NCBI GenBank assembly: GCA_963803805.1
Contig: CAWDOD010000011.1
Location: forward strand, 416,001-480,000
Direction of reading: 5' to 3'
Source: an uncultured cyanobacterium
Lineage (GTDB): Bacteria > Cyanobacteriota > Cyanobacteriia > Cyanobacteriales > CAWCAG01
Length of the DNA stretch: 64,000 nucleotides
This document shows, one piece after another, positions 1 to 18,284 of the stretch; the stretch's first letter is position 1, and the number at the start of each line of letters is the position of its first letter. The notes beneath the pieces are model-generated. The model saw only the letters and a list, made by a program, of their open reading frames with translations, did no database searches and was not told where the DNA came from. The position numbers were made by a program, and so were the translations under genes.

Positions 1-132
1 AATCAGTGAGTCAACAATAATATTCTCAAGTAGGAGCAAGCTATTAACTCCTTATTCCAAGGTATGATGGCAGGAGTTTTCTGCTTTTTTCCTTCTATTA
101 CCCCTACTTCACTTACCTTTTTTAGATAACTT

Positions 133-1731
133 GTGTCTGTCAAGAAAAAAACCTCTCGTTCCTTAGCTGGTATTGCCGGCATTGTCGCCGTTGCCACCTT
201 GATTAGTAAAGTTTTCGGTTTAATACGCGAACAAGCGATCGCAGCCGCATTTGGAGTTGGGCCAGTTGCTAATGCTTATGTTTATGCCTATGTGATTCCC
301 GGATTCTTACTGATTCTTTTGGGAGGAATTAATGGCCCTTTCCATAGTGCTTTGGTTAGTGTCCTGGCTAAGCGAGACAAATCAGAAGCTGCACCTTTAG
401 TAGAAGCAGTGACAACTTTGGTTAGTGCATTTCTTTTAGTTATTACCGTTGTGCTGATTGTCTTTGCTGGAACTTTTATTGATCTCCTGGCCCCCGGTTT
501 GGAAGCAGAAGTACGGGCGATCGCAGTTCAGCAGTTACAAATCATGGCCCCTCTGGCACTTTTAGCAGGGTTGATTGGTATTGGTTTTGGTACTCTCAAC
601 GCTGCTGATCAATATTGGCTACCTAGTGTCAGTCCGTTGTTTTCTAGCCTAGCGATTATGTTTGGCTTGGGGGTATTAGCCTTTCAATTAGGGGAGCAAA
701 TCTCCGCCCCTGAATATGCCACTTTTGGAGGCTTAATCCTAGCGGGAGGAACTTTAGCTGGGGCGATTTTACAATGGTTAGCGCAACTATTTGCTCAAAT
801 GCGTTCAGGTTTGGGAGGATTGCGACTACGTTTTGATCTGCGTATTCCGGGGTTAAAAGAGGTGATGAAGGTGATGTTGCCAGCAACCCTTTCTTCTGGG
901 ATGTTACACATCAACGTTTATACAGACTTCTTCTTCGCCTCCTACATTCCTAGTGCTGCGGCAGCCATGAAGTTTGGCAACCTCATTGTCTTAACTCCTT
1001 TAGGAATCATCTCCAACATGATTTTGGTTCCGATGTTACCTGTATTTTCGCGCCTGACTTCCCCAGAGCAATGGCCAGATTTAAAGATACGCATTCGTCA
1101 AGGTTTACTCCTCACAGCCCTAACAATGCTACCTTTAAGCGCCATTTTCATCTCTTTAGGTATTCCTATTGTTCGCATTGTTTATGAACGTTTTGCTTTT
1201 GATCAAGAAGCATCCTTAATTGTCGCCCCTGTCTTAATGACTTATGGGGCAGGAATGTTTTTCTATTTAGGAAGGGATGTTTTGGTGAGAGTATTTTATG
1301 CTTTGGGAGATGGGGAAACTCCTTTTCGGATTAGTATTTTTAACATTTTCCTCAACGGACTTTTAGACTTTCTGTTGGTTAAAGCCTTCGCTACCCCAGG
1401 TTTGATTATGTCTACTATCGGGGTTAATGTTGTTTCTATGATCCTGCTTTTATGGGCATTAAACCGCAAAATCAACGGCTTACCTTTTGCTGAATGGGGT
1501 TTAGCTTTATTCAATATAACCTTGTGTAGCGCCACAGCAGGTTTAGCAAGTTGGGGAACTAGTTGGGGTTTCCAAAAGATTTTTGGCAACGATAATTTAC
1601 TACTGTTAATCGGACAATTCCTTTCTGGGGCAACAGTAGCTTTATTGGTTTTTGCAGTTTTAGTTACTTTTTTGAAGTTGCCAGAAGTGGATATTTTAGT
1701 CAGGAGAATAAAGCAGAAAATAGGGAGATGA
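133..1731 (+). CDS. murJ: Lipid II flippase MurJ (MviN)
   Basis: 532-aa polytopic membrane protein; N-terminal ATLISKVFGLIREQAIAAAFGVG, GGINGPFHSALV and RVFYALGDGETPF are typical of cyanobacterial MurJ. Confidence 0.93.
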   Translation: MSVKKKTSRSLAGIAGIVAVATLISKVFGLIREQAIAAAFGVGPVANAYVYAYVIPGFLLILLGGINGPFHSALVSVLAKRDKSEAAPLVEAVTTLVSAFLLVITVVLIVFAGTFIDLLAPGLEAEVRAIAVQQLQIMAPLALLAGLIGIGFGTLNAADQYWLPSVSPLFSSLAIMFGLGVLAFQLGEQISAPEYATFGGLILAGGTLAGAILQWLAQLFAQMRSGLGGLRLRFDLRIPGLKEVMKVMLPATLSSGMLHINVYTDFFFASYIPSAAAAMKFGNLIVLTPLGIISNMILVPMLPVFSRLTSPEQWPDLKIRIRQGLLLTALTMLPLSAIFISLGIPIVRIVYERFAFDQEASLIVAPVLMTYGAGMFFYLGRDVLVRVFYALGDGETPFRISIFNIFLNGLLDFLLVKAFATPGLIMSTIGVNVVSMILLLWALNRKINGLPFAEWGLALFNITLCSATAGLASWGTSWGFQKIFGNDNLLLLIGQFLSGATVALLVFAVLVTFLKLPEVDILVRRIKQKIGR

Positions 1732-1754
1732 TTGGGGTGTAAGCCCGAAGAAAA

Positions 1755-2588
1755 TCATCGAGAAGTAACTAAATTAATTATCGTCACCTCTGGAGGACAG
1801 AATAAGCGTCCTGGGGCGTAGCTGCCTAAACCACGATTAACATAGAGTTGGTTGTTGCCTAATTTATGGAATCCTTGACTCCATTGCCAGTTTTTAAAAA
1901 CACGGGAACAGTTTTTAAAATAGGGTATATAATGCCTTATTACTGATGGTAAACTTTGTCCCCGTTCTGTTATGAAACGAGGAAAAGGGCCAATTCCAGG
2001 AATAACTATTTGCCCTCCGTGAGTATGTCCAGAAAGTTGTAAATCTACACGCCATTTTTGTAAAGCTTTTGCGGAATCTGGGTTGTGGGATAAAATCAGC
2101 CGTGGGGTTTGGGGATTTAATTGCTCCATTACCGGTTCTGGCTTAAATTCGGGCGACCAAAAATCAGCTAATCCCACTATTGGTAATTCTTGACCCAAAG
2201 GATAGGCAATTTCATTCCATAAAACTGTAACACCAATGCCAATTAAACTTTCTCTAATTAACTTTCTAGATAGGGGCCAATAGTTATCATGGTTACCTAA
2301 GCAAGCATATATTCCTAAACGACTTTGTAATTGTTTGAGATGCAATACTAAGTCGTGAATGGGAGTAGGATCATCAGTGACATAATCCCCTGTCAATAAG
2401 ATAAGATCGGGCTTTTCTGCGTTAGTTGTGGTGATAGCTTGGGTTAGTAACTTTTCTGAAAGCCGCCAACCATCATAGTGAAAATCTGATAGTTGAACTA
2501 ATTTTGTCCCTGATAATTGAGGAGGTAAATCGGCGATCGCCACACTTATTCTTTCTATACTTAAAGGTTCAGTTTTAATGAATTGCAC
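1755..2588 (-). CDS. Calcineurin-like metallophosphoesterase (YkuE/YaeI type)
   Basis: Motifs DFH, GDYV, GNHD, LSHNPD, SGHTHGGQ. Confidence 0.9.
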   Translation of the reverse strand: MQFIKTEPLSIERISVAIADLPPQLSGTKLVQLSDFHYDGWRLSEKLLTQAITTTNAEKPDLILLTGDYVTDDPTPIHDLVLHLKQLQSRLGIYACLGNHDNYWPLSRKLIRESLIGIGVTVLWNEIAYPLGQELPIVGLADFWSPEFKPEPVMEQLNPQTPRLILSHNPDSAKALQKWRVDLQLSGHTHGGQIVIPGIGPFPRFITERGQSLPSVIRHYIPYFKNCSRVFKNWQWSQGFHKLGNNQLYVNRGLGSYAPGRLFCPPEVTIINLVTSR

Positions 2589-2606
2589 AGGATAATTACC
2601 TTTTAT

Positions 2607-3998
2607 CTATTCACCTAGTTGTTTCGTAATCTCCCCACCTAAAACTTCCCAATCAACTTCTATTTGCTTTCCTGTCTTCAAATTCTTTAAACCGCATTTT
2701 TGCGCCGCCGCTTCCTCAGAACCAATAATTACACAAAAAGGTATACCTCGCTTATCCGCTTGTTGTAGCTGTTTACCAACCCCACGCTTCTCAAAACTAG
2801 TAACTACATTTAATCCTTCCTGGCGCAACTTTTGAGATACTTTCAGGTACAAAGGCATCAAATCTTCTTGCATATTAATAACCATTACTTGGGTAGGAGT
2901 AGCAGCTAAAGGTTCCATAATCTCAGCTTTAAGTAAACGACTCATTAAGCGAGTTAAACCAATAGAAATGCCTACTCCAGGCATCTTTTCACCCACAAAC
3001 ATTCCTACTAATTCTTCATACCTCCCCCCAGAACAAATACTGCCTAATTCTTCATTGCCAACTAAACTTGTTTCATAAACTGTACCTGTATAGTAGTTTA
3101 GTCCCCTGGCGATGGCTAAATCGAGGCAAAAGTACTTTTCTGCTACTCCCAAGTTACGGACGTTGGTAATTACTGTTTCTAATTCAGTAATACCTATTTT
3201 AAGTACCTCAGAATTATGGTTATTTTGAGCAATATTTCTTAGTTTAGCTAAAACTTCATCAACGCTACCTTTCACTTGAGTAAAAGCTAAAACCTGCTCT
3301 ACTTGTTCTTTATTTAAACCTTCTTCTTGTAGAGCTTTTTTTACTTTCGTTTGTCCAATCTTCTCTGCTGCGTCAATAATCCGAATACAAGCAACAATTT
3401 TTTCTTGGGCAACTTTAATTGCTTGAAAGAAACCAGTCAAAACTTTGCGATTATTGATCCGAATTAAAAAATCTCCAATATCAATAGCTGTAAAAATTTC
3501 AGCAATGATAGCAGGAATTTGAGCATCGTAAAGTAAACTTAGTTTGTTCCTCCCTACCACATCAATGTCGCACTGACGGAATTGACGATAGCGTCCATCT
3601 TTAGCCCTTTCCCCCCGAAATACCATATCCATTTGATAACGGGCAAAAGGAAAGTTTAATTCATTAAGGTGGCGAGCGATATAGGCAGCTAAAGGAACAG
3701 TTTGATCAAATTTCAAAGCCCGTTCTTCAGAACTAGAATTTCCGGCTTGTTCTTGCTCTGCTTGGCGTAAAGGAGGCAAAATAGGATTCAAACCATAGAT
3801 AATATTATCCCCTTGATTTCCTTTGGCTTGGAGTACTTCAAGGCGTTCCACAGCAGGGGTTTCAATGGGAGTAAAGCCATAGCGCTCAAAAACTTGGCGA
3901 ATGGTATCTAATAAATAAAGCTCTAGGCGCTTTTCCTCTGGAAGAAATTCCGGAAAACCGCTAGGACAAGAGTAATTGATTCTATCAGCCTTTGCCAT
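2607..3998 (-). CDS. hisS: Histidine--tRNA ligase
   Basis: Class II motif 2 FRGERAKDGRYRQFRQCDIDVVG, ARGLNYYTG, SGGRY and a C-terminal anticodon-binding domain. Confidence 0.95.
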   Translation of the reverse strand: MAKADRINYSCPSGFPEFLPEEKRLELYLLDTIRQVFERYGFTPIETPAVERLEVLQAKGNQGDNIIYGLNPILPPLRQAEQEQAGNSSSEERALKFDQTVPLAAYIARHLNELNFPFARYQMDMVFRGERAKDGRYRQFRQCDIDVVGRNKLSLLYDAQIPAIIAEIFTAIDIGDFLIRINNRKVLTGFFQAIKVAQEKIVACIRIIDAAEKIGQTKVKKALQEEGLNKEQVEQVLAFTQVKGSVDEVLAKLRNIAQNNHNSEVLKIGITELETVITNVRNLGVAEKYFCLDLAIARGLNYYTGTVYETSLVGNEELGSICSGGRYEELVGMFVGEKMPGVGISIGLTRLMSRLLKAEIMEPLAATPTQVMVINMQEDLMPLYLKVSQKLRQEGLNVVTSFEKRGVGKQLQQADKRGIPFCVIIGSEEAAAQKCGLKNLKTGKQIEVDWEVLGGEITKQLGE

Positions 3999-4110
3999 TT
4001 TTTTTGAGTAATCAGAAACTTGTGGGCATTAAAAAGTAATAAGTAAAGAATATACTACTACTAAAAAACTCGTTCCCTATTAAAAATTAGCCATTAGCTA
4101 TTAGCAAAGT

Positions 4111-5067
4111 CTATTTCTTCCTACCAAATAAGCCTCCAAATCTTCCTCCAGATTTATTATCTCCTGAAGTGGTTTTAGAACTATTTCCCGTTTGTTTGCC
4201 ACCAGTTTGTCCCCCGCTCATTTTATCTAATAGTTGCTTTCCTTTAATCGCATTAGGATCTTGAGGATTTACTTTTAAGGCTTTGTTAATATAAACTTTA
4301 GCCATTCCCATTTGCTTTTGTTGTAAGTAAATCAACCCCAATAAGCTATTACAAGGAGCATCATTAGGTTCTAGTTTTAAGCCATCCCGCAACTCTAAGA
4401 CAGCTTTGCTGAAATTCTTCTTGCTTATATATTCTTGAGCGCGGCGCACATAAGGCTCTGATCTTGAAGCTGGCGGTTTTCTTTCTGCTCCTTTGCCAGG
4501 AGGTTTGCCCCGTCCCACAGAAGGTTTCTTATCCCCTACTGTTGAACCTGTAGCTGTAGTTCCTCCTCCTGCTCTAACGCCTTTACCCTGCTTCTTCATC
4601 AAGTAAACCATGTTCAGTTCACTAATTTGAGCAATCTTATTGGAAATTTCTCCTAGAGTTTGGTATTGCTCTTTTGCTAGGGTTTGTAGCTGTTGCTTGT
4701 AAACACTATCTAAGGTGCTACTACCAGCTTTAGAAAGTTCTTTTGCTCCTTCGCTAGACAAAGATACTTTGCCTCCCTCTGTAGCTAGCCTTTGCCCCAT
4801 TTGAGAAAGAACTAATTGGTATTCTGCACGAGAATCGTCTTTAGATAATTTTTCGTAGGCCGGATTAACCAACTTTGATAACAATTCGTTAGCTTGCTTT
4901 TTCTCTGCTTCATTCTCAGCTTTGCAGCTATCAGGGTGCAAATTCCGAGCTACTCTTAGATATCTTTTACGTACTTGCTTAGCATCTGCGGTAAGAGGTA
5001 ATCCCAAAACAGCATGATAGTCGGTAAGATCGTATTTAAAAAGTCCTTGCTCAATTTTGAAAGACAT
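4111..5067 (-). CDS. J-domain protein with C-terminal TPR
   Basis: N-terminal J domain with HPD (RNLHPDS); TPR-like helices near the C-terminus. Confidence 0.85.
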   Translation of the reverse strand: MSFKIEQGLFKYDLTDYHAVLGLPLTADAKQVRKRYLRVARNLHPDSCKAENEAEKKQANELLSKLVNPAYEKLSKDDSRAEYQLVLSQMGQRLATEGGKVSLSSEGAKELSKAGSSTLDSVYKQQLQTLAKEQYQTLGEISNKIAQISELNMVYLMKKQGKGVRAGGGTTATGSTVGDKKPSVGRGKPPGKGAERKPPASRSEPYVRRAQEYISKKNFSKAVLELRDGLKLEPNDAPCNSLLGLIYLQQKQMGMAKVYINKALKVNPQDPNAIKGKQLLDKMSGGQTGGKQTGNSSKTTSGDNKSGGRFGGLFGRKK

Positions 5068-5343
5068 AAATTTCTACACTATCTCCTTGCTGAAATAATT
5101 TCTCAATTTTTGTGGTAGCTCAATGGCTAGCCTTGTAAGCTGTAGTAGCCTTCAAGAAAGTTTCTTAATATAAAATAATAGCTAATTTAATATGCTCCCT
5201 TGTATTTGGATACACCTTTTTCTTAGGATACCTATTTTAGTTAAGAAAATCCTCTCCTAGGCAGAATCTACATGAGTTCTTTATTAAGGCTTCACTCTTA
5301 ACTTTAAAAATGGAAATTCCCTCGTTAGTTTAACCAATAAATG

Positions 5344-6180
5344 CTAATTCTTGTGATTTTCCCAGTCCGAGAGAGGAGGCGTTTCCTGCAAAGCTTTGCT
5401 AAGTTGGTTATGGAGGATGCTATTGGTTGCTAAAATCCGACCGGAGTTCAGTTCTAAAGGGCTGCCATCGTAAGCCGTAACTTTCCCTCCTGCTTCTTGC
5501 ACTAAAACTATACCCGCAGCAACATCCCAAAGTTTGATACCTCTTTCCCAATAACCATCAAGACGACCACAAGCAACATCGCATAAATCAAGGGCAGCAG
5601 AGCCGCTACGCCTTACTCCTTGTGTTAAATGAGTTAAGTAGCAGAACTCCGCATAATTATTATCTGCTGTTTCTGTGCGATCATAAGCAAAACCACTTAC
5701 TAGTAAACTCTGTCTTAACTCAGAGACACTAGAGATTTGAATCGGGCGATAATTGCAACTAGCACCCAATCCTGTGGCAGCGCGAAAAAGTTCTTTACGA
5801 AAAGGATTATAAATAGCGCCAACTTGAGGCACTCCTTCAATTAGTAGCCCTACAGAAACACAAGAAATAGGATACTGGTGGGCATAATTAGTTGTGCCAT
5901 CTAAGGGATCTACTGCCCAAAGATACTTACTCTTTTTGGTATTAATCTCCCCCGACTCTTCCGTTAAAATGGGATTATCTGGGGTGCGATCGCGCAATAC
6001 TTTTAAAATAGCTACTTCTGCTGCTTTATCTGCTTCGGTAACTAAATCTCCGGAACGACCTTTTTCTTCAATGGATTTAAGGTTGCCCCAATAATCTTCT
6101 AGAATCGCCCCAGCAGCGTGTACTGCTTCTGTGGCAATATCGAGGAGAGTGGCTAATTCTTGGGTAGATGCTTGGGACAT
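5344..6180 (-). CDS. suhB: Inositol monophosphatase family protein
   Basis: DLVTEAD, WAVDPLDGTTNY, RRSGSAALDLC, WDVAAG. Confidence 0.88.
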   Translation of the reverse strand: MSQASTQELATLLDIATEAVHAAGAILEDYWGNLKSIEEKGRSGDLVTEADKAAEVAILKVLRDRTPDNPILTEESGEINTKKSKYLWAVDPLDGTTNYAHQYPISCVSVGLLIEGVPQVGAIYNPFRKELFRAATGLGASCNYRPIQISSVSELRQSLLVSGFAYDRTETADNNYAEFCYLTHLTQGVRRSGSAALDLCDVACGRLDGYWERGIKLWDVAAGIVLVQEAGGKVTAYDGSPLELNSGRILATNSILHNQLSKALQETPPLSDWENHKN

Positions 6181-6314
6181 AGTAAAAAATTATTAGTTAT
6201 TAATTAAAGGATTAGAGATGTTTTTGATATTAGGCGATCGCCGTCTTTTCTCAATCAATTTCGCCAGATTCTTCTGTACTGTAGTATATTTACTCATACT
6301 CTACCGCTCTCATT

Positions 6315-6953
6315 ATGATTCAAACTATTACCAAACCCCTAACCTTTGCAGAATTTTTAGTGTGGGATGATGGCTCAGGGCAGGATTTTGAACTAATTGC
6401 GGGGGTTGCTGTGCCGATTGCTGAACCGAATGCTAACCATGAAGATGTTGCGGACACTCTTTGTGCTTCTTTGTTAGCAAACTGCACAGAACATAACTTA
6501 CCTTATATTCCCAAGCGCTCCAAGCAAGTTAGATTAAATACCCAGCTAGGAGAAAGAGAAAGAAGTCGCAAACCTGATATTGTGATCTTTGCTGCGGAAG
6601 AATGGCAGAGAATGAAAACCAGTTCTATTCCTGCTGCTGCTTATGTTCCACCCCCAATGGTAGTAGAGGTTGTGAGTGGTAATTGGCGAGATGATTATTT
6701 GACAAAGTTAGCTGAGTATGAATCTTTAGGTATCCCAGAATATTGGATTGTTGACTATGCTGGGTTAGGGGCGATTCGTTATATTGGTTCCCCTAAACAA
6801 CCTACCTTAAGTATTTACCAGTTAGTTGAAGGTGAGTATCAACTTAAGCAGTTTAGAGGAGAAGAGCAAGTTGAATCAGGGCTGTTTCCTCAACTTAACC
6901 TTTCAGCAGAGCAAATCTTTGCCCCAGGGCTTTTAAACAACACAGATATTTAA
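6315..6953 (+). CDS. Uma2 family (DUF820) endonuclease-like protein
   Basis: RKPDIV, VVEVVS, DYLTKLAEYESLGIPEYWIVD. Confidence 0.9.
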   Translation: MIQTITKPLTFAEFLVWDDGSGQDFELIAGVAVPIAEPNANHEDVADTLCASLLANCTEHNLPYIPKRSKQVRLNTQLGERERSRKPDIVIFAAEEWQRMKTSSIPAAAYVPPPMVVEVVSGNWRDDYLTKLAEYESLGIPEYWIVDYAGLGAIRYIGSPKQPTLSIYQLVEGEYQLKQFRGEEQVESGLFPQLNLSAEQIFAPGLLNNTDI

Positions 6954-6959
6954 CTTTAA

Positions 6960-7538
6960 CTATCCCCAAATATTTGGTAAATCTAAAACAAAACCGGGTA
7001 AGATATCTTCTCCTGATAAACTAGTCGGATTATCTAAAACCTCTTTAGTTTCTCCTTGACGATAAATTTCAACTTGGCGAGTTTGAGGATTAATCAACCA
7101 ACCTAACTTCACCCCATTGCTCAGATACTCCTCCATCTTTTTCCGAGTACCAGTTAAAGTATCGCTAGGGGACATTAACTCTAAAACGAAATCTGGGGCA
7201 ATGGGAGGAAACTTCTCTTTTTCTTGAGCAGTTAAAGCTTCCCATCTTGACTTTTCAATCCAAGAAACATCAGGGGAACGGTTTGCACCATTGGGTAAAC
7301 GGAAACAAGTAGAAGAATCAAAACAAACTCCTAACTTGGTTTGACGATTCCAAAATACAAAGTCTCCAGCTATTTCTATATTACGCTTGCCAGTTTCTCC
7401 ACCTGTCGGGGGCGTAATAACAATCTCTCCGTTAACGTTGCGTTCAAACTTAATATCAGGATTGGCACGGCAGAGATTATAAAACTTTTCGTCATCAATT
7501 TGACTAATAGGAGCAAAATTGATCGTGTAAGCAGTCAT
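6960..7538 (-). CDS. Uma2 family (DUF820) endonuclease-like protein
   Basis: RSPDVSW, PDFVLELMSPSD, KMEEYLSNGVKLGWLINP; start placed at ATG 7538 (MTAYTINF) rather than the longer ORF-track start. Confidence 0.9.
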   Translation of the reverse strand: MTAYTINFAPISQIDDEKFYNLCRANPDIKFERNVNGEIVITPPTGGETGKRNIEIAGDFVFWNRQTKLGVCFDSSTCFRLPNGANRSPDVSWIEKSRWEALTAQEKEKFPPIAPDFVLELMSPSDTLTGTRKKMEEYLSNGVKLGWLINPQTRQVEIYRQGETKEVLDNPTSLSGEDILPGFVLDLPNIWG

Positions 7539-7635
7539 TGTATGTAAATAAAGAGTTTGTTTAAGTTTGATTTTACTGCTATTTCCTAATGCCCCCGTCA
7601 ATCTCAACAGATAAATTAAATGCTTGAGAGCTTGT

Positions 7636-7662
7636 TTAGGGCGCGTATGTCTGCGCCCCGAC
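7636..7662. repeat. REP-like hairpin
   Basis: AGGGCGCG-tatgtc-TGCGCCCC imperfect inverted repeat just downstream of the pilin-like gene. Confidence 0.45.
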
Positions 7663-7669
7663 AAAATCC

Positions 7670-8353
7670 CTAACCACCTCTAAGGGAAGTAGAACCTTCA
7701 GGGCATTCAACTTGACCATCTTCCCCTGGTGCTTTTGGCATAGCGGGGGGTTGATCAGAAGGCTCGTCAGTTTCACAAATTCCCGGTACAGGAGCGCTTT
7801 CTCCATTAACTTCAATAACAAAAATTGCTCCGGTGTAACTTTTTAAAGCCTCATCTTTCGCTTTAGCTGTTACCATCACGCTTTTATCATCTTGAGAATC
7901 GATCTTATACTGGAAATTATCTGTTTCCGATTCAATTTGTAAACCTAACTCCTCGAAGCTATTACCGAACTTATTATTCTGTAAATAATAAGCTTGTTGA
8001 GCCTGTAATAACGAAGCCACGATAGTTCTACCTTCGTTTTGTTTAGCTTGTTCTTCCAGGTTGATAACTTCTGTCCCTTCAGGCAAATCTGTCTCCTCAG
8101 AAACCTTTTCTAAAGGAATTTCATAAGCCAGAGATTCCCCTTCAGGTATTTGTCCTTCGGGGGGGATGACAAATACTTTTCCTTCTGGAGAGAGAATAAT
8201 TTTAATCTCTTCTTTGGTGGTTGGTTCTGTAAATGTCCAAGTACCCTGCCATTCTTTACCAGACTGACAGCCAGCAATGCTCAAAATACTCACTGCTAAA
8301 CCGAAAAAGATTGAGGTACGCGATAAAGATAAAGACCGCAAAAAATTAGACAA
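7670..8353 (-). CDS. Lipoprotein with type IV pilin-like G/H domain
   Basis: Lipobox-like SIAGC; C-terminal EGRTIVASLLQAQQAYYLQNNKF...LKSYTGAIF...ICETD matches the cyanobacterial pilin G/H domain. Confidence 0.75.
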   Translation of the reverse strand: MSNFLRSLSLSRTSIFFGLAVSILSIAGCQSGKEWQGTWTFTEPTTKEEIKIILSPEGKVFVIPPEGQIPEGESLAYEIPLEKVSEETDLPEGTEVINLEEQAKQNEGRTIVASLLQAQQAYYLQNNKFGNSFEELGLQIESETDNFQYKIDSQDDKSVMVTAKAKDEALKSYTGAIFVIEVNGESAPVPGICETDEPSDQPPAMPKAPGEDGQVECPEGSTSLRGG

Positions 8354-8361
8354 GGTTTTAT

Positions 8362-8655
8362 TTAAGTTTTAAGTTTACATCTAGAAGGATAATAGATTTG
8401 ACGCATTTTGCTGTGATTGAGTTGCGAGTAAACCTTTTTAGAAGCAATTAAGGGTTTGAGACATTGAAGGGCCATTGATATTGGTCTGTTCAAGATTTGG
8501 CAGATTTCTTGTAAGCTTATTCCTTGAGGATGAGATTGAATCAAAGCTTCAATTTTTTCTGTGGTTGTTGGGCCAGGAGTAGGGCTGATAATACGAATAA
8601 AGGTCAAGGTTTTCGGCTTAGAGTGATTGTTTGTGGAACTGTTGCTGCGTTGCAC
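8362..8655 (-). CDS. Small hypothetical protein, possible winged helix
   Basis: GISLQEICQILNRPISMALQCLKPL resembles an HTH; GTG start uncertain. Confidence 0.5.
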   Translation of the reverse strand: MQRSNSSTNNHSKPKTLTFIRIISPTPGPTTTEKIEALIQSHPQGISLQEICQILNRPISMALQCLKPLIASKKVYSQLNHSKMRQIYYPSRCKLKT

Positions 8656-12967: not shown

Positions 12968-14062
12968 ATGACCAGAGTTACAATTATTGGTGCTGGTGTC
13001 ATTGGTGCAGCGATCGCCTATGAGTTAAGTTCGGTGGAGGGGTTGGAAATAACTCTCCTAGAACGAGAAACTCCTGCCTCTGGTTCTACTGGGGCTGCTT
13101 TGGGAGTGTTAATGGGAGCTATTAGCCATAAAGTTAAAGGTAAGCCTTGGCGGTGGCGTAAAAAGAGCCTCCAGCGCTATGAGACTTTGATACCAGAGTT
13201 AGTAGCTTTGACAGGAAAACAAATACCTTTCAACCGCCGAGGTATTATCAAGTTACGCTTTGCTGGAGAAGCTGTTTCTCCTTGGGAAAAGTTAGTTGCT
13301 AAACGCCATAGTCAAAACTGGGCTTTAGAAATTTGGGATTTATCTCAATTACAAACTCAATGTCCTCAAATCCAAAACGAGAAGGTTATCGGTGCGGTTT
13401 ATTCCCCCCAAGATCGCCAGGTTAACCCCAGCCAGTTAACAGAAGCTTTGGTGGCAGCAGCAAGGTTAAAAGGAGTTCAATGCCAATTTGGGGTTGAGGT
13501 AGAAAATATCATTCCCCATAACTCCCAGAAACCTATTTCCTATCAACTTCATACCACCTCCGGCATCCTAGAAACTGAGTGGCTAATTATCGCCGCAGGG
13601 CTTGGTTCTACCCCTTTAACTGCTTCCCTTGCCCAAACTGTAGATATTCGTCCAGTTTTAGGACAGGCATTACAAGTTGAGTTAAAACAACCTTTAGGTA
13701 AGCCTGACTTTCAACCAGTAATCACCGGAGACGATACCCATATTGTCCCTTTAGGTGATAATCAATATTGGTTAGGAGCAACGGTAGAATTTCCTAACCA
13801 GGAAGTGGAATTAATAGCTCAAGAATTTTGTTTAGAAGAGTTAAAGAATAAAGCGATCGCACTTTGTCCTGCTTTAAGTGAAGCTAAAATCCTACATACC
13901 TGGTCAGGTAAACGTCCCCGTCCTGAAGGAAGACCAGCCCCTATTGTAGAAGAATTACCTAACAACCCTCAAGTACTCTTAGCGACAGCCCATTATCGCA
14001 ACGGTGTACTTCTGGCCCCTGCTACAGCTTTAGAGATTAAAAGTAAGCTTGCTAATGGCTAA
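12968..14062 (+). CDS. FAD-dependent oxidoreductase, DAO/glycine oxidase family
   Basis: GAGVIG Rossmann motif, GKRPRP, HYRNGVLLAP. Confidence 0.85.
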   Translation: MTRVTIIGAGVIGAAIAYELSSVEGLEITLLERETPASGSTGAALGVLMGAISHKVKGKPWRWRKKSLQRYETLIPELVALTGKQIPFNRRGIIKLRFAGEAVSPWEKLVAKRHSQNWALEIWDLSQLQTQCPQIQNEKVIGAVYSPQDRQVNPSQLTEALVAAARLKGVQCQFGVEVENIIPHNSQKPISYQLHTTSGILETEWLIIAAGLGSTPLTASLAQTVDIRPVLGQALQVELKQPLGKPDFQPVITGDDTHIVPLGDNQYWLGATVEFPNQEVELIAQEFCLEELKNKAIALCPALSEAKILHTWSGKRPRPEGRPAPIVEELPNNPQVLLATAHYRNGVLLAPATALEIKSKLANG

Positions 14063-14178
14063 TGGCTAATGGCTAATAGACCTGTCCATTAATTAAAATT
14101 TAGTCTAGATTTTGTAAGGGCTTCAGATTAATTTTTGGACAAGTCTAATGGCTAATGGCTAATGGCTAGTTGTTAGTT
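14050..14178. repeat. Heptamer tandem repeats (GCTAATG)n interrupted by a 71-bp inverted-repeat element
   Basis: GCTAATG copies on both sides of TAGACCTGTCCA...TGGACAAGTCTA (14077-14147). Confidence 0.7.
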
Positions 14179-14679: not shown

Positions 14680-14739
14680 GCTAATGGCTAGTTGGTAGTT
14701 GGTAGTTGGTAGTTGCTAGTTGGTAGTTGCTAGTTGCTA
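14680..14739. repeat. Heptamer tandem repeat (G[G/C]TAGTT)n, STRR-like
   Basis: About 8 tandem 7-mers. Confidence 0.8.
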
Positions 14740-14809: not shown

Positions 14810-15397
14810 TTAATTAACGCTGTTCCTTGCTTCCGATTGACGTGGTTGACTTAATTGTGGTTGTTCTTGTTGGAAACTGTAGCCTAGCCAGATGAAACCT
14901 CCACCGAAAACACCAATTACCCCAATTAAGATAACTGTGAGTAATTTTACTTGAGAGCGAAGTAAGTCTACTTCTTGGCTACCCCTTTGAATTTGGGATT
15001 GAGGAGGAGTTTCTTCAATACCTAGTTTTTTACGAGCAACTTCTTCAACAATTTTCTCTTCTTTTTGGTTAAAAGTAACTTGAGAATGGAGCCAGTCGGC
15101 AATTAATTTTGGGCAGTTTTTTTTAAACCAACGTATGGCGATTATTTTAAATAATGGCTTTGATATTTTCGCTATTGGTTTCATGGTTTTATTAGCCAGA
15201 CGCGAATGAAACTTTTGGTCAATGAGATTAATTGAACCTATATCATAAAGACAATCTAAGATTAGCTTAATATTAACTTCTTCTCTTTCAGTTAAATGTT
15301 GAAGGAGGACAAGAACTTGATACATAAGTTCTTTTTCTTTTTCAGCTTTTTCTGAAAGCGGCTCGATTTCAGCTAGATTTTCTGGGGTGGGGTTCAT
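14810..15397 (-). CDS. Conserved cyanobacterial hypothetical protein with C-terminal TM helix
   Basis: REEVNIKLILDCLYDIGSINLI...RWFKKNCPKLIADWL; hydrophobic segment near the C-terminus. Confidence 0.7.
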   Translation of the reverse strand: MNPTPENLAEIEPLSEKAEKEKELMYQVLVLLQHLTEREEVNIKLILDCLYDIGSINLIDQKFHSRLANKTMKPIAKISKPLFKIIAIRWFKKNCPKLIADWLHSQVTFNQKEEKIVEEVARKKLGIEETPPQSQIQRGSQEVDLLRSQVKLLTVILIGVIGVFGGGFIWLGYSFQQEQPQLSQPRQSEARNSVN

Positions 15398-15650
15398 CTT
15401 CGTCTTAACTCTTCTAACAGGCTAGGGAGGTAATAAGATCCTATATAAGTTTTGAAAAGATTGGGGACTTAAGGTGCATCAGGGTATCAAGTATTTATAT
15501 TCTTTGCTGGAATAAGAAAACGGAGATAATTTTTGGGATGTTGATATCCATTTTGAAGAAAGAAGTATTTTTGACTACACTTAAGCCAAAATTGATAATT
15601 CAATAATTGTATTTACCGCCAAGTACTCCATTGGACATAAATAAAATTAC

Positions 15651-15678
15651 TTGACAGATATGAAATTACTGCTAATAT
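15651..15678 (+). promoter_or_regulatory. Putative sigma70 promoter upstream of the repeat array
   Basis: TTGACA (15651-15656), 16-nt spacer, TAATAT (15673-15678) with extended -10 TG at 15670-15671. Confidence 0.55.
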
Positions 15679-15847
15679 ACCCTTTGTATCAGTAAAAGGC
15701 AGGGTGCAGTTTCTCTGGCATATTAATTAGACTCTGTTAAAGCAGGGTCTTTATTGTTTATTCACGTAAGTAGTCCTACCCTCGCTGAATCTGGCTGGTT
15801 AGATGATGCTTCTCTTTAGCTTCAACTTCATTCAAGAAAAACAATGC

Positions 15848-16057
15848 ACTATTCAGAAATCTCTCAGCCTCGTCTAGGAAACTTAGAGTACTACTCAGGA
15901 AACTCTTGGCCCCGCCCAAGAAACTTAGAGTACTACTCAGAAAACTCTCAGCCCCGCCCAGGAAACTTAGAGTACCATTCAGGAAACTCTCGGCCTCGTC
16001 CAGAAAAAATAGAGTACTATTCAGGAATCTTTCGGCCTCGCCCAGGGAACTTTATGT
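15848..16057 (+). repeat. Five tandem 42-bp repeats, each made of two 21-bp halves sharing a CAGGAAACT-like core
   Basis: Units start at 15848, 15890, 15932, 15974 and 16016; consensus ACTAYTCAGGAAACTCTCRGCCYCGYCCAGGAAACTTAGAGT; spanned by an open frame 15844-16059. Confidence 0.92.
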
Positions 16058-16121
16058 AACAAGTATTCTTTAGCTAAAGCATTAAGCTAAGATAAAAATA
16101 ACTATCTTATCTCTAAAGTTA

Positions 16122-16775
16122 ATGGCTATTGATCAAAGCTTAGGCAGTTTTTTTAATAAAGCTAGACTTGTTATTGATGGTTCCTTAAACCATAGTGAAA
16201 TTCAAAGTTATCTCAGTCAATACGGTTATACTCTTGAACGCCTCCAGGAAGGGAAAACCCTTTATGAAGCTGCCTTTGCTGCTAACGAAAAACAAAAGAA
16301 AGAATTTGGGGAACAAATTGAAGCTACAGCCGAGTTTAAAAAGACTTGGGAACAGTCCCAAAAGAACTATATGCGTTATGTAAAAATTGCCCGCATCGCC
16401 TTTAAAGATAAACCAGGAGTATTTACAGAATTAGCCCTTAATGGTAAACGAAAACGCAGTTTTTCGGGTTGGTTAATGCAGGCAAGCCAGTTTTATAGCA
16501 ATTTGCTAGGGAATCAGCAACGCCTCGATGCAATGGCTAAATATGGCATTACTTCAGAGATGTTAACCGCAGGGCAAACGGAATTAGACACAGTGCAAGC
16601 GGCTAACATCTCCCAACAAAAAGAAAAGGGCGATGCCCAAGCAGCAAGGGAAGTGAGGGATAAAGCTATTGATGAACTTGATGATTGGTTAAGTGATTTG
16701 ATTGCAATTAGCCGCATTGCCTTAGAAGAAAGCCCCCAGTTGATTGAGAGTTTGGGGATTGTGGAACCTTCTTAA
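16122..16775 (+). CDS. Hypothetical all-helical protein with two internal repeats
   Basis: 217 aa; YGYTLERLQEG...QKKEFGE...KIARIAF aligns with YGITSEMLTAG...QQKEKGD...AISRIAL. Confidence 0.8.
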   Translation: MAIDQSLGSFFNKARLVIDGSLNHSEIQSYLSQYGYTLERLQEGKTLYEAAFAANEKQKKEFGEQIEATAEFKKTWEQSQKNYMRYVKIARIAFKDKPGVFTELALNGKRKRSFSGWLMQASQFYSNLLGNQQRLDAMAKYGITSEMLTAGQTELDTVQAANISQQKEKGDAQAAREVRDKAIDELDDWLSDLIAISRIALEESPQLIESLGIVEPS

Positions 16776-16849
16776 TGATAATTTAAGCAGGGAAGGCATT
16801 TAGATTAGTTGTTGGAAGTGAGGGGGTGATGGGGAGAGGGTTTAATAAT

Positions 16850-16987
16850 TAAGCTAAGACGCATTTAAACTGGTATTGATCAAATCCACCTATTTTCCTC
16901 AACATCTTCACTATTACCTATTACCTATTCTCTTACAAACCAATTAAAAGCATAACAGCTTATATGGTTTAAATGTACATCAGCTTA
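16850..16987. mobile_element. Degenerate MITE-like element
   Basis: Left end TAAGCTAAGACGCATTTAAAC; two imperfect inverted right ends AATTAAAAGCATAACAGCTTA (16942-16962) and GTTTAAATGTACATCAGCTTA (16967-16987). Confidence 0.45.
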
Positions 16988-17000
16988 GCAATAACAACGA

Positions 17001-18074
17001 ATGAACAATAACCAATCCCCTAAGCAAGCCGACGACTCCTTTCGCAGCGTTCATACCAAAAACTTCAGCAACATTCTCCAACAATTAAACATCTCCCTGA
17101 TCGTCTCCACCTACCAAGCGGGCAAAGTCATTCTCTTGCGGGAGGATGAAGGAAAACTCAACACCCACTTTCGCCTCTTCCGCAAACCCATGGGTATGGC
17201 GGCTAACAACACTCGTTTAGCCATTGGTACAGCTTACCAGGTAGTGGAACTCTACAATATGCCTGCTGTGGCTCAAAAACTTGAACCTGTGGGTAAACAC
17301 GACGCTTGTTACATCCCCCGCAACGTCCATATCACCGGAGACATTGACATCCACGAAATGGCTTGGGGCAAAGAGGAACTTTGGGTTGTTAACACCCGCT
17401 TCTCTTGCCTTTGCACCATCAACACAGAATATAGCTTTATCCCCCGTTGGCGACCTCCTTTTATCACTGGTTTGGGTATGGAGGATCGTTGTCACCTTAA
17501 CGGTTTAGGCTTGGTAGATGAACGTCCTAAATACGTCACTGCTTTAGGGCAAACCAACAACCCCCAAGGTTGGCGGGAAAACAAAGCTAACGGAGGCATC
17601 TTAATGGATGTAGGAAGTAACAAAATTATTTGTCAAGGTCTTTCTATGCCCCATTCTCCCCGTTGGTATGATAATCAACTTTGGGTTTTAGAATCAGGCA
17701 ACGGTACTCTAGCAACGGTAGACTTGCAAACAGGTAAATGGACAACAGTCGCAACTTTACCAGGTTTCACTCGCGGTTTAGCCTTTTATGGCCCCCTAGC
17801 CTTCATCGGTTTGTCTCAAGTTAGGGAAACGGCGGTATTTAGCGGCATTCCCCTCACAGAGAAGCCTACAGAACGCAATTGCGGGGTTTGGGTGGTGAAT
17901 ATTCAAACCGGAGAAACGGTCGCTTTCTTGCGCTTTGAAGGGGCAGTACAGGAAATCTTTGCTGTGGGGGTAATGCAGAACATCCGCTTCCCGGAAATCC
18001 TCGAAGGAGATGAAGAACGTCTTTCTCATTCCTATGCTTTACCAGAAGAGGCTTTGCGGGATGTTGAAGTTTAG
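17001..18074 (+). CDS. TIGR03032 (DUF4915) family conserved protein
   Basis: STYQAGK, TGDIDIHEMAWG, VNTRFSCL, EDRCHLNGL, GLSMPHSPRW, PGFTRGL. Confidence 0.88.
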   Translation: MNNNQSPKQADDSFRSVHTKNFSNILQQLNISLIVSTYQAGKVILLREDEGKLNTHFRLFRKPMGMAANNTRLAIGTAYQVVELYNMPAVAQKLEPVGKHDACYIPRNVHITGDIDIHEMAWGKEELWVVNTRFSCLCTINTEYSFIPRWRPPFITGLGMEDRCHLNGLGLVDERPKYVTALGQTNNPQGWRENKANGGILMDVGSNKIICQGLSMPHSPRWYDNQLWVLESGNGTLATVDLQTGKWTTVATLPGFTRGLAFYGPLAFIGLSQVRETAVFSGIPLTEKPTERNCGVWVVNIQTGETVAFLRFEGAVQEIFAVGVMQNIRFPEILEGDEERLSHSYALPEEALRDVEV

Positions 18075-18284
18075 CTAATTGCTAATTGCTAATGGCTATT
18101 TGCTAATGACTAACTGTTTTCAATAAAGATATCTTCAAACAAAGACTGCTTGACTCTGAAGTTTATTTTTATTAACCGTTGATAAAGATTATCCAAATCT
18201 TCAATATTTATTTTACCCTCCTTACTTATTTCAAAAACGAGCTTAAATCCCAATGCGACCCTACTACTAGGTCTATCTGCGACG

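Follow-up and report, generated by a model that had tools for sequence, protein, structure and literature searches.

A tandem array of 21-nucleotide units and a PQLLE-family gene form a conserved module in Cyanobacteria, Bacteroidota and other phyla

Results

Features of the locus

We analysed a stretch of 64,000 nucleotides (nt; hereafter the window) from an uncultured cyanobacterium (GenBank assembly GCA_963803805.1, contig CAWDOD010000011.1, positions 416,001 to 480,000 of the forward strand), in which a tandem array of 21-nt half-units is followed on the same strand by a gene of the PQLLE family. Array and gene are one conserved module that recurs over several phyla. In the window the locus comprises the following features:

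15651 to 15678, forward strand: sigma-70-like promoter match, TTGACA and TAATAT separated by 16 nt, with TG before the -10 element; 10 of 12 positions match
15729 to 15760, forward strand: terminator-like hairpin with a 9-bp stem and a 4-nt loop, then a T-rich run
15844 to 16059, forward strand: mechanically called open reading frame (ORF) of 71 amino acids (aa) that spans the array, judged not to be a gene
15848 to 16052, forward strand: tandem array, 4.9 copies of 42 nt, composed of ten 21-nt half-units that alternate between two types
16053 to 16121, forward strand: spacer, 69 nt, A/T-rich, with two short inverted repeats
16122 to 16775, forward strand: PQLLE-family gene, 217 aa, starting 69 nt past the array
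16122 to 16445, forward strand: N-terminal repeat domain of the protein, residues 1-108 (NF052641; boundary from an hhalign comparison of the two halves)
16446 to 16775, forward strand: C-terminal repeat domain, residues 109-217 and the stop codon, ending in a PQLIE motif

A preliminary description, made from the letters alone, had listed the array, the inverted repeats of the spacer and the 217-aa gene, and all three are present. According to Tandem Repeats Finder (TRF) the array has a period of 42 nt with 4.9 copies, 81% matches and a score of 249; a sub-period of 21 nt (15876-15988) and a super-period of 84 nt are also called. The core CAGGAAACT is common to both half-unit types. Allowing at most one mismatch, YCAGRAAACTYW is found in the array at 15853, 15874, 15895, 15916, 15937, 15958, 15979, 16021 and 16042, all nine sites standing in exact 21-nt register, while the slot at 16000 is degenerate. 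Self-identity of the array is 0.82 at a lag of 42 nt compared to 0.48 at a lag of 21 nt, and together with the register this resolves it into ten 21-nt half-units of two alternating kinds. A possible eleventh half-unit, degenerate and judged by eye only, lies at 15827-15847. Across the whole window YCAGRAAACTYW has 15 matches, nine of them inside the array, against a chance expectation of 8.5 +/- 2.9 (2 of 100 shuffles reach 15); the six matches outside the array are therefore at chance level. The two inverted repeats of the spacer are TTTAGCTAAA at 16069-16078 and AAGATA...TATCTT at 16089-16108.

Linkage of array and gene across taxa

Does the array belong to the gene? The preliminary description had proposed looking for 21/42-bp arrays beside homologues, and we compared the best 80 of 212 relatives in genome contigs (labelled L001 onward) together with the window. 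The relatives originate from Cyanobacteria, Bacteroidota (Cyclobacteriaceae, Bacteroidales and others), Calditrichota, Acidobacteriota, Cloacimonadota, KSB1 and more; their loci lie on chromosomal contigs of up to several Mb, and some genomes contain two or three copies of the module. Cultured carriers among them are Reichenbachiella agariperforans DSM 26134 (L062) and Cyanothece sp. BG0011 (L034). With strict TRF settings, 49 of the 69 loci with 400 nt or more of upstream sequence show an array with a period of ~21n nt in the 600 nt before the gene. With lax settings an array with a period of 20-22 or 41-43 nt is called in 71 of 79 upstream regions, the window included. Self-identity at lags of 21/42 nt in the upstream 600 nt exceeds that of every control window from the same locus in 68 of 71 loci, so the proposed recurrence is borne out. 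The period is kept at 20-22 / 41-43 nt despite sequence divergence. The 71 arrays contain 2.6 to 13.7 half-units (median 8.6), with the 42-nt alternation clearly exceeding the 21-nt period in 22 of them, and array and start codon lie 0 to 517 nt apart (median 81 nt).

Within the ~8-kb loci the sole other period-21 array found by strict TRF is an orphan in L010, the other matches passing the filter being 102-106, 64-66 and 40-bp repeats. Sites that resemble a locus's own unit occur outside the arrays 11 times in 506,383 nt, three of them again in L010. The L010 orphan (6336-6530) is a 21-nt array followed by a short ORF remnant with a C-terminal PQL...LG motif; it is a decayed second copy from which most of the gene has been deleted, and array and gene have thus decayed jointly. 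In L040 (2349-2390) a second copy of one A-B double unit, along with the ~45 nt in front of the main array, lies behind a paralogous Fib_succ_major gene; a tandem gene duplication appears to have brought this extra unit with it.

The units differ between paralogues of the same genome, as seen in L021/L022/L029 and in L024/L025/L027. The contigs of L004, L024, L025 and L027 begin inside a 21-nt array, and many database homologues are found on contigs of 1-3 kb. The arrays therefore appear to break assemblies, which hints at variation in length or at collapse between paralogues.

No partner gene is conserved across the 81 loci; the commonest neighbour, a Uma2 nuclease, is present in 15 of them. 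Since no neighbour is conserved, array plus gene is the unit of inheritance. A tblastn search yielded no match in 72,556 plasmid records and none in 50,697 phage records, which excludes a replicon or partition site and leaves a chromosomal operator unaffected.

The PQLLE protein

The protein encoded in the window matches the NCBIfam profile NF052641 (“PQLLE family protein”) with an E-value of 6.2e-74 and 248.2 bits (cutoff 80), residues 6-213 aligning to positions 4-211 of the 211-position profile. The family name derives from the C-terminal motif and has no functional meaning. The system had been put forward as uncharacterised. A literature search found no description of an array paired with a PQLLE protein and gave no relevant result for a function behind the name “PQLLE”; the protein does belong to a named family, itself uncharacterised, whose members, where the source annotation names them, are nearly always a ‘hypothetical protein’.

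An hhalign comparison of the N-terminal with the C-terminal half gives a probability of 99.3% (E = 1.1e-20, 104 columns, 24% identity), and tblastn self-matches agree. The protein is an internal duplication of a domain of ~105 aa, in accord with the duplicated protein seen at first reading. Clustered at 50% identity, the family has 3,576 representatives at E<=1e-3, of which 1,253 reach E<=1e-30. Among the best 150, nearly all are ~215 aa long, and in the few longer forms the upstream 21-nt repeat is read through (e.g. P0041, P0114); a search for fused forms of 416-2000 aa gave none, though as evidence this is weak. The first half of the protein contains a conserved basic patch formed by R85, K88, R91, K95, R110 and K111.

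As the preliminary description had supposed, the protein has no ToxN-like or Cas-like features: Pfam, NCBIfam, PADLOC and PHROGs reveal no ToxN, Cas or other known domain. The window protein has no Pfam match, including helix-turn-helix (HTH), winged-helix and ribbon-helix-helix (RHH) families, and nothing consistent appears in Pfam at E<=1 among all 72 family members; PADLOC and PHROGs give no significant match. A profile search against PDB sequences returns best matches of E>=0.045 only; a 93-column alignment to a RecQ fragment (3iuo_A, E 0.35) is no more than a lead. The ESM Atlas returns the family itself plus a weak lead to DUF6261 (0.87-0.88): in one cluster near PQLLE proteins, which appears twice, 32% of the members have DUF6261. 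In L057 a gene for a DUF6261 protein (2830-3519, reverse strand) lies divergent from the PQLLE array. A kinship with DUF6261 is not supported by hhalign of the PQLLE protein against this neighbour, which gives a probability of 0.5% and no significant similarity.

Coding capacity of the arrays

Alternatively, as had been considered at the outset, the array could code for a peptide partner of the protein, built of 14-aa or 7-aa repeats (the ORF at 15844-16059). The ATG at 15844 and the stop codon at 16057-16059 frame the window array exactly, 46 of 71 arrays are open in some sense frame, and the database proteins P0041 and P0114 read through the array. Against this, the other 25 of the 71 arrays carry stops in all sense frames and the antisense strand is equally open (52 of 71). 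No reading frame would survive periods of 20, 41 and 62 nt. Moreover, the repeats of the window differ at 24 sites, of which 17 are non-synonymous, with 5, 10 and 9 falling on the three codon positions and hence no third-position bias, and the predicted peptides of different loci have nothing in common, in contrast to the nucleotide core. A repeat-peptide partner is thereby effectively refuted. A precursor of the kind that gives ribosomally synthesised and post-translationally modified peptides, or any other repeat-peptide precursor, was likewise rejected because no conserved open frame under purifying selection runs across the array.

Sequence and structure of the units

Each unit has a conserved core, with linkers that vary. 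Twelve non-cyanobacterial loci of several phyla have units that align roughly as GGAAAAAT-S-RTT...C-GCA-Y, and a leave-one-out family profile fits better in the sense orientation in 53 of 57 arrays. A sequence-only covariance model of the unit (R1, 21 positions, ~14 bits) returned one chance-level match in 258,801 nt and was too weak, so a windowed matrix test was used instead. A matrix built from non-cyanobacterial units only ranks the array above all control windows in 6 of 27 cyanobacterial loci, and for the window itself 3 of 318 control windows score above the array, which places it in the top 1%. Of 71 arrays, 63 are rich in A+C on the sense strand (mean composition A.33, C.28, G.19, T.20). 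In cyanobacterial arrays the C:G ratio is ~2:1 even at columns that vary within the array, and this excess of C over G points to a strand-specific constraint that goes beyond a conserved motif.

Could the repeats act on duplex DNA? The array would then be an operator resembling iterons, in which a pseudo-dimeric protein occupies repeats two helical turns apart and regulates its own gene cooperatively, without replication; it would polymerise on one face of the DNA beside or over its own promoter, as P1 RepA does on incC or as F RepE does. This is the main rival to a partnership at the level of RNA; we consider it unlikely, albeit it has features in its favour. The period of 20-22 bp (and 41-43) is kept across phyla, and iterons are spaced at ~22 bp. 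The core AAT-S-ATT is pseudo-palindromic with C and G alternating at its centre in several arrays, and the units are locally confined to the array, as would befit a pure autoregulator. On a duplex, however, there is no obvious reason for a strand-asymmetric composition that extends to the variable columns, and periods of 20 and 41 drift off the helical phase over ten units. The protein, moreover, is acidic and without an HTH, winged-helix or RHH match, and the absence of matches among the plasmids and phages argues against a replicon or partition site.

The arrays are unstructured according to several analyses. With alifold, the units give about 0 kcal/mol in most arrays on both strands; in a column-pair scan of 445 distinct units the best excess pairing is 0.07; and a candidate 4-bp stem is paired in 56.4% of cases compared to 54.8% in shuffles, 83 of 500 of which are equally high. 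The whole window array folds with z-scores of +0.33 and -0.34 on the two strands. Rfam returns no family at gathering score in the window region (two chance-level matches at E<=1) or in the 14 loci scanned. One hairpin per unit, suggested by eye from GGAA...TTCC and GGGG...CCCC in L063 and L066, was rejected because alifold, the column-pair scan and the pair count did not support it. The notion of one protein domain per 21-nt half-unit was also abandoned: the similarity of the N- and C-terminal halves shows no correlation with the A/B heterogeneity of the arrays (rho 0.02, 60 loci). The array is not a CRISPR array, since its units are contiguous without spacers; true CRISPR arrays (36-nt repeat, 65-66-nt period), unrelated in sequence to the units, do occur elsewhere in some loci.

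Leader, spacer and signals around the array

The near-consensus promoter of the preliminary description is present, with its 10 of 12 matches. The region 15300-17100 has only 2 promoter-like sites, fewer than the 4.6 +/- 2.1 of shuffles, and the site at 15651-15678 is therefore a good match that is statistically not distinctive; its tie to the module is uncertain. The “structured leader” did not hold up: positions 15685-15847 (163 nt) fold no better than shuffles (z -0.11), and what remains is the one 9-bp terminator-like hairpin between promoter match and array. This hairpin and its T-run (15729-15760) begin ~50 nt past the promoter match and have no Rfam match; they could be the end of a transcript or small RNA of ~75 nt, or an attenuator upstream of the array. 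For an operator on DNA the hairpin is a favourable sign, as it argues against transcription reading into the array.

Terminator-like sites between array and ATG are found in 2 of 68 loci compared to 13 of 154 control segments. The array-to-gene spacers have a mean fold z of -0.23, with 3 of 57 below -2, and hence no excess structure; the window spacer has a z of -0.37 and no terminator-like site is called in it. A layout of the type III toxin-antitoxin kind, which had been suggested, stands insofar as the repeats lie upstream of the gene, but the terminator expected between them is missing in 66 of 68 loci and the spacers are without excess structure.

In several loci only 0-40 nt separate array and ATG, which is too little for a promoter downstream of the array and speaks against the DNA operator. 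Two related loci (L053, L079) have a Bacteroidota-type TAnnTTTG (-7) box that precedes the array by 12-20 nt. In 40 of 57 loci the upstream ORF shares the strand of the module, with its stop codon at most 120 nt from the array in 19. In cyanobacterial loci the A/C-rich composition runs on to the ATG, and the post-array spacer is highly conserved within cyanobacterial subgroups, a promoter-like behaviour that would suit an operator. Two spacer elements are common to several cyanobacterial subgroups (L010, L019, L022, L032, L015, L018, L021, L011, L003), namely (T)YGGGCA(A/C)CCT, ~45-60 nt before the ATG, and ATCYACC, directly before it; these could be a promoter or an element of the 5' untranslated region. 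The window, L001 and L002 are without both.

The array could also be a cis element that works independently of the PQLLE protein, such as a booster of translation that does not depend on a Shine-Dalgarno site, a phase-variable expression switch that depends on repeat number, or a platform for host or phage factors. Bacteroidota and their relatives, as well as Cyanobacteria, use few Shine-Dalgarno sites, and the family is concentrated in these groups. The lack of structure in the array (z +0.33) and the A/C-richness up to the ATG in cyanobacterial loci are also in keeping with such an element, and the contigs that break inside arrays (L004, L024, L025, L027) suggest variation in length. A generic enhancer, however, would not hold a 21-nt period, a family-specific core and a fixed polarity, and its restriction to one gene family would be unexpected. 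The differing units of paralogues within a genome argue against a shared host factor, and in L010 array and gene have decayed jointly. Taken together, a protein-independent element is improbable.

Genomic neighbourhood

In 77 non-duplicate loci, a Pfam scan of the 296 ORFs that lie no more than 2 kb from the module revealed many toxin-antitoxin neighbours (PIN, HepT/MNT, BrnT, ParE, MazF, Phd, HigB, RES, HipA). Restriction and nuclease genes (HsdS/HsdR, Eco57I, GmrSD, DUF559, Uma2) are found as well, as are STAND/NLR-like NTPases with CHAT, caspase or TIR domains and with HEAT, TPR or WD40 repeats; further neighbours are Thoeris ThsA/ThsB, KAP NTPases, TnpB and a reverse transcriptase. By a raw hand count without background control, 48 of the 77 loci have at least one neighbour of the toxin-antitoxin, restriction, NLR-like, CRISPR or mobile type. 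That such neighbours are called conflict genes follows the background on NTPase conflict systems in papers such as PMC7159879. Replication genes were absent from the neighbour scans.

Five loci have the order cas9 - array - PQLLE - cas1. In L072, L075, L077 and L080 (about 1-8600 in each) cas9, the array and the PQLLE gene are followed by a gene for a transposase-like protein, cas1, cas2 and a CRISPR array with a 36-nt repeat and a 65-66-nt period, the module thus lying inside a type II CRISPR-Cas locus; L055 has the same order from cas9 to the CRISPR array with a fragmented cas9. In these loci cas9 (TIGR01865) scores above the NCBIfam cutoff, and the transposase-like protein of ~215 aa resembles REP-associated tyrosine transposases, below the cutoff. 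All come from related Bacteroidales/Cytophagales and may therefore reflect one evolutionary event. A search of their arrays for an anti-repeat like that of trans-activating CRISPR RNA found none.

In many cyanobacterial loci a large STAND/NLR-like or repeat gene (NACHT-HEAT, CHAT-NACHT-TPR, WD40, TPR) lies just upstream on the same strand (1-3.7 kb upstream in L003, L008, L009, L015, L021, L022, L029, L030 and L031), and these repeat proteins explain the 102-144-bp coding repeats called by TRF. Upstream of the module in L061 (2935-3622) a 36-nt palindromic repeat recurs at ~132-nt spacing, and L062 has a CRISPR-like array (6172-6869; 36-nt repeat, 66-nt period) 1.5 kb downstream.

In the window the upstream neighbour is an unknown membrane protein on the opposite strand. 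Downstream of the PQLLE gene, 17001-18074 encodes a full-length TIGR03032/DUF4915 protein of unknown function, which stands beside the module in none of the 80 other loci. Intergenic heptanucleotide tandem repeats of the GCTAATG, TAGTTGG, CTATTAC and GCTAATT types, unrelated to the 21-nt array, lie at 14051-14077, 14145-14168, 14689-14736, 16911-16929 and 18074-18113; we take them to resemble the short tandemly repeated repetitive sequences typical for filamentous cyanobacteria.

Discussion

The linkage of array and gene, the fixed polarity of the units, their specificity for paralogues and the joint decay of both parts indicate that the array is the protein's own partner. Taking the levels of RNA and DNA together, we therefore hold it probable that the PQLLE protein has its cognate nucleic-acid partner in the array. 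At the level of RNA, which we favour tentatively, an unstructured repeat leader would be bound at many sites by the two-domain protein. In this mechanism, transcription of the array from the gene strand would yield an unstructured, A/C-rich repeat leader; several PQLLE molecules would bind it sequence-specifically through the conserved core of the units, which is about GRAAAAT-S-RTT...C-CAY in most non-cyanobacterial loci and CAGGAAACT in the window; and binding would hold the protein inactive, shut off its own translation, or both. The repeat RNAs of type III toxin-antitoxin systems and the AbiF non-coding RNA neutralise their proteins in this manner. We infer that the protein would bind the array, that the array would act as RNA and that toxicity or a defence activity may be involved. 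The best explanation at hand, plausible though far from settled, is a self-contained module that has been inherited both vertically and horizontally.

RNA is favoured over DNA by the A+C-rich sense strand and the excess of C over G at variable columns, by terminators that are rarer than in controls and gaps of 0-40 nt before the ATG, and by the TAnnTTTG box preceding the array in L053 and L079 together with same-strand upstream genes that end nearby.

Several observations weigh against this reading. The family is acidic, with a median isoelectric point of 5.18 and a net charge of -5 (72 sequences), which is unusual in a protein that coats long stretches of nucleic acid. No TRF array is called in 8 of the 79 upstream regions, and in at least one of them, L026, an intact gene stands without the periodicity upstream. 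Not all cyanobacterial subgroups share the unit motif, some having diverged beyond recognition by the matrix, and the similarity of the protein halves does not follow the A/B heterogeneity of the arrays. As to transcription, the terminator-like hairpin separates the only good promoter match of the window from the array. Scans for Bacteroidota -7/-33 and sigma-70 promoters give no consistent position, nor do matches like that of the window have one in other cyanobacterial loci. The best-conserved core, AAT-S-ATT, is compatible with a DNA operator by virtue of its pseudo-palindromic form, and a period of 21 bp, equal to two turns of B-DNA, would fit such an operator too. With regard to the defence setting, the tally of 48 loci has no background to be measured against. 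About 10 of these loci count mainly through Uma2 nucleases, a family common in cyanobacteria, and an estimated ~38 remain without them; the window's own neighbours are ordinary genes, not defence genes.

The frequent toxin-antitoxin and defence-island setting suggests a role in conflict or addiction. Could the module be a new class of RNA-repeat/protein conflict system? A previously unrecognised helical effector would be inactivated by multi-copy binding to its own unstructured repeat RNA. The module would have spread horizontally through Bacteroidota and related phyla, Cyanobacteria and others, and immune loci would have recruited it repeatedly; between cas9 and cas1 of type II CRISPR-Cas systems it might serve as an accessory or addiction component. 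We regard this extended proposal as speculative and rather unlikely as a whole.

The array that accompanies this large protein family appears to be undescribed, and Rfam contains no such family. If the array is an RNA partner, the module would add a new protein fold and repeat architecture to a very small set (type III toxin-antitoxin systems and AbiF) and would extend such systems to phyla where they are hardly known. Because the module recurs in defence islands and within type II CRISPR-Cas loci, simple genetics could directly test whether it serves phage defence or the maintenance of the locus.

Comparison with known systems

The type III toxin-antitoxin systems ToxIN, CptIN and TenpIN share several traits with the PQLLE module. 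In both, an array of direct repeats lies immediately upstream of a single same-strand gene, with 4.9 copies of 42 nt in the window compared to 5.5 copies of 36 nt in ToxI. Both are self-contained two-part loci whose paralogues have their own repeats and whose surroundings are rich in defence and toxin-antitoxin genes. On the other hand, PQLLE has no similarity in sequence comparison to the endoribonucleases ToxN/AbiQ, CptN and TenpN; the unit is made of two 21-nt half-units; and the module has no plasmid or phage examples. A short palindromic terminator between repeats and toxin gene is among the criteria for type III systems given in PMC3401426, whereas a terminator-like site precedes the PQLLE gene in only 2 of 68 loci, the window having weak A/T inverted repeats instead.

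AbiF (Abi_2/AbiD/F) is, according to 10.1101/2025.04.15.648962, neutralised through direct binding by an adjacent non-coding RNA with two repeated motifs, in cis and in trans. An adjacent partner of repeated motifs, proposed here for PQLLE, and a defence context would be common to both. There is, however, no Abi_2 domain in the window protein or in the 72 family members, and no abiF or other Rfam motif at the PQLLE loci; the 3-14 contiguous units found here are unstructured, in contrast to the two structured motifs of the AbiF RNA. As the protein is unrelated, the terminator missing and an RNA motif match absent, the PQLLE module belongs to neither type III toxin-antitoxin systems nor AbiF.

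Iterons, as in P1 incC/repA, F ori2/repE, R6K and RK2, are sets of three to a dozen direct repeats of ~20 bp beside the gene of the protein that binds them, with autoregulation. Direct repeats of ~17-22 bp beside a gene, phased at two helical turns, have their counterpart in PQLLE periods of 20-22 nt. The PQLLE module differs in being chromosomal, with strand-asymmetric arrays, an acidic protein without Rep-like similarity and no replication genes nearby. Should the array act on DNA, it would represent a form of iteron-like control that works on the chromosome and without replication.

Multi-site autogenous control is also known from TRAP on the trp leader and from gp32 of phage T4, an acidic protein that binds cooperatively to its own unstructured leader. 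Short repeated sites in an unstructured 5' leader are common to these and the PQLLE module. There is no sequence relationship, and whereas TRAP and gp32 belong with metabolic or replication genes, the PQLLE units are much longer (21 nt), are specific to their family and lie in defence islands.

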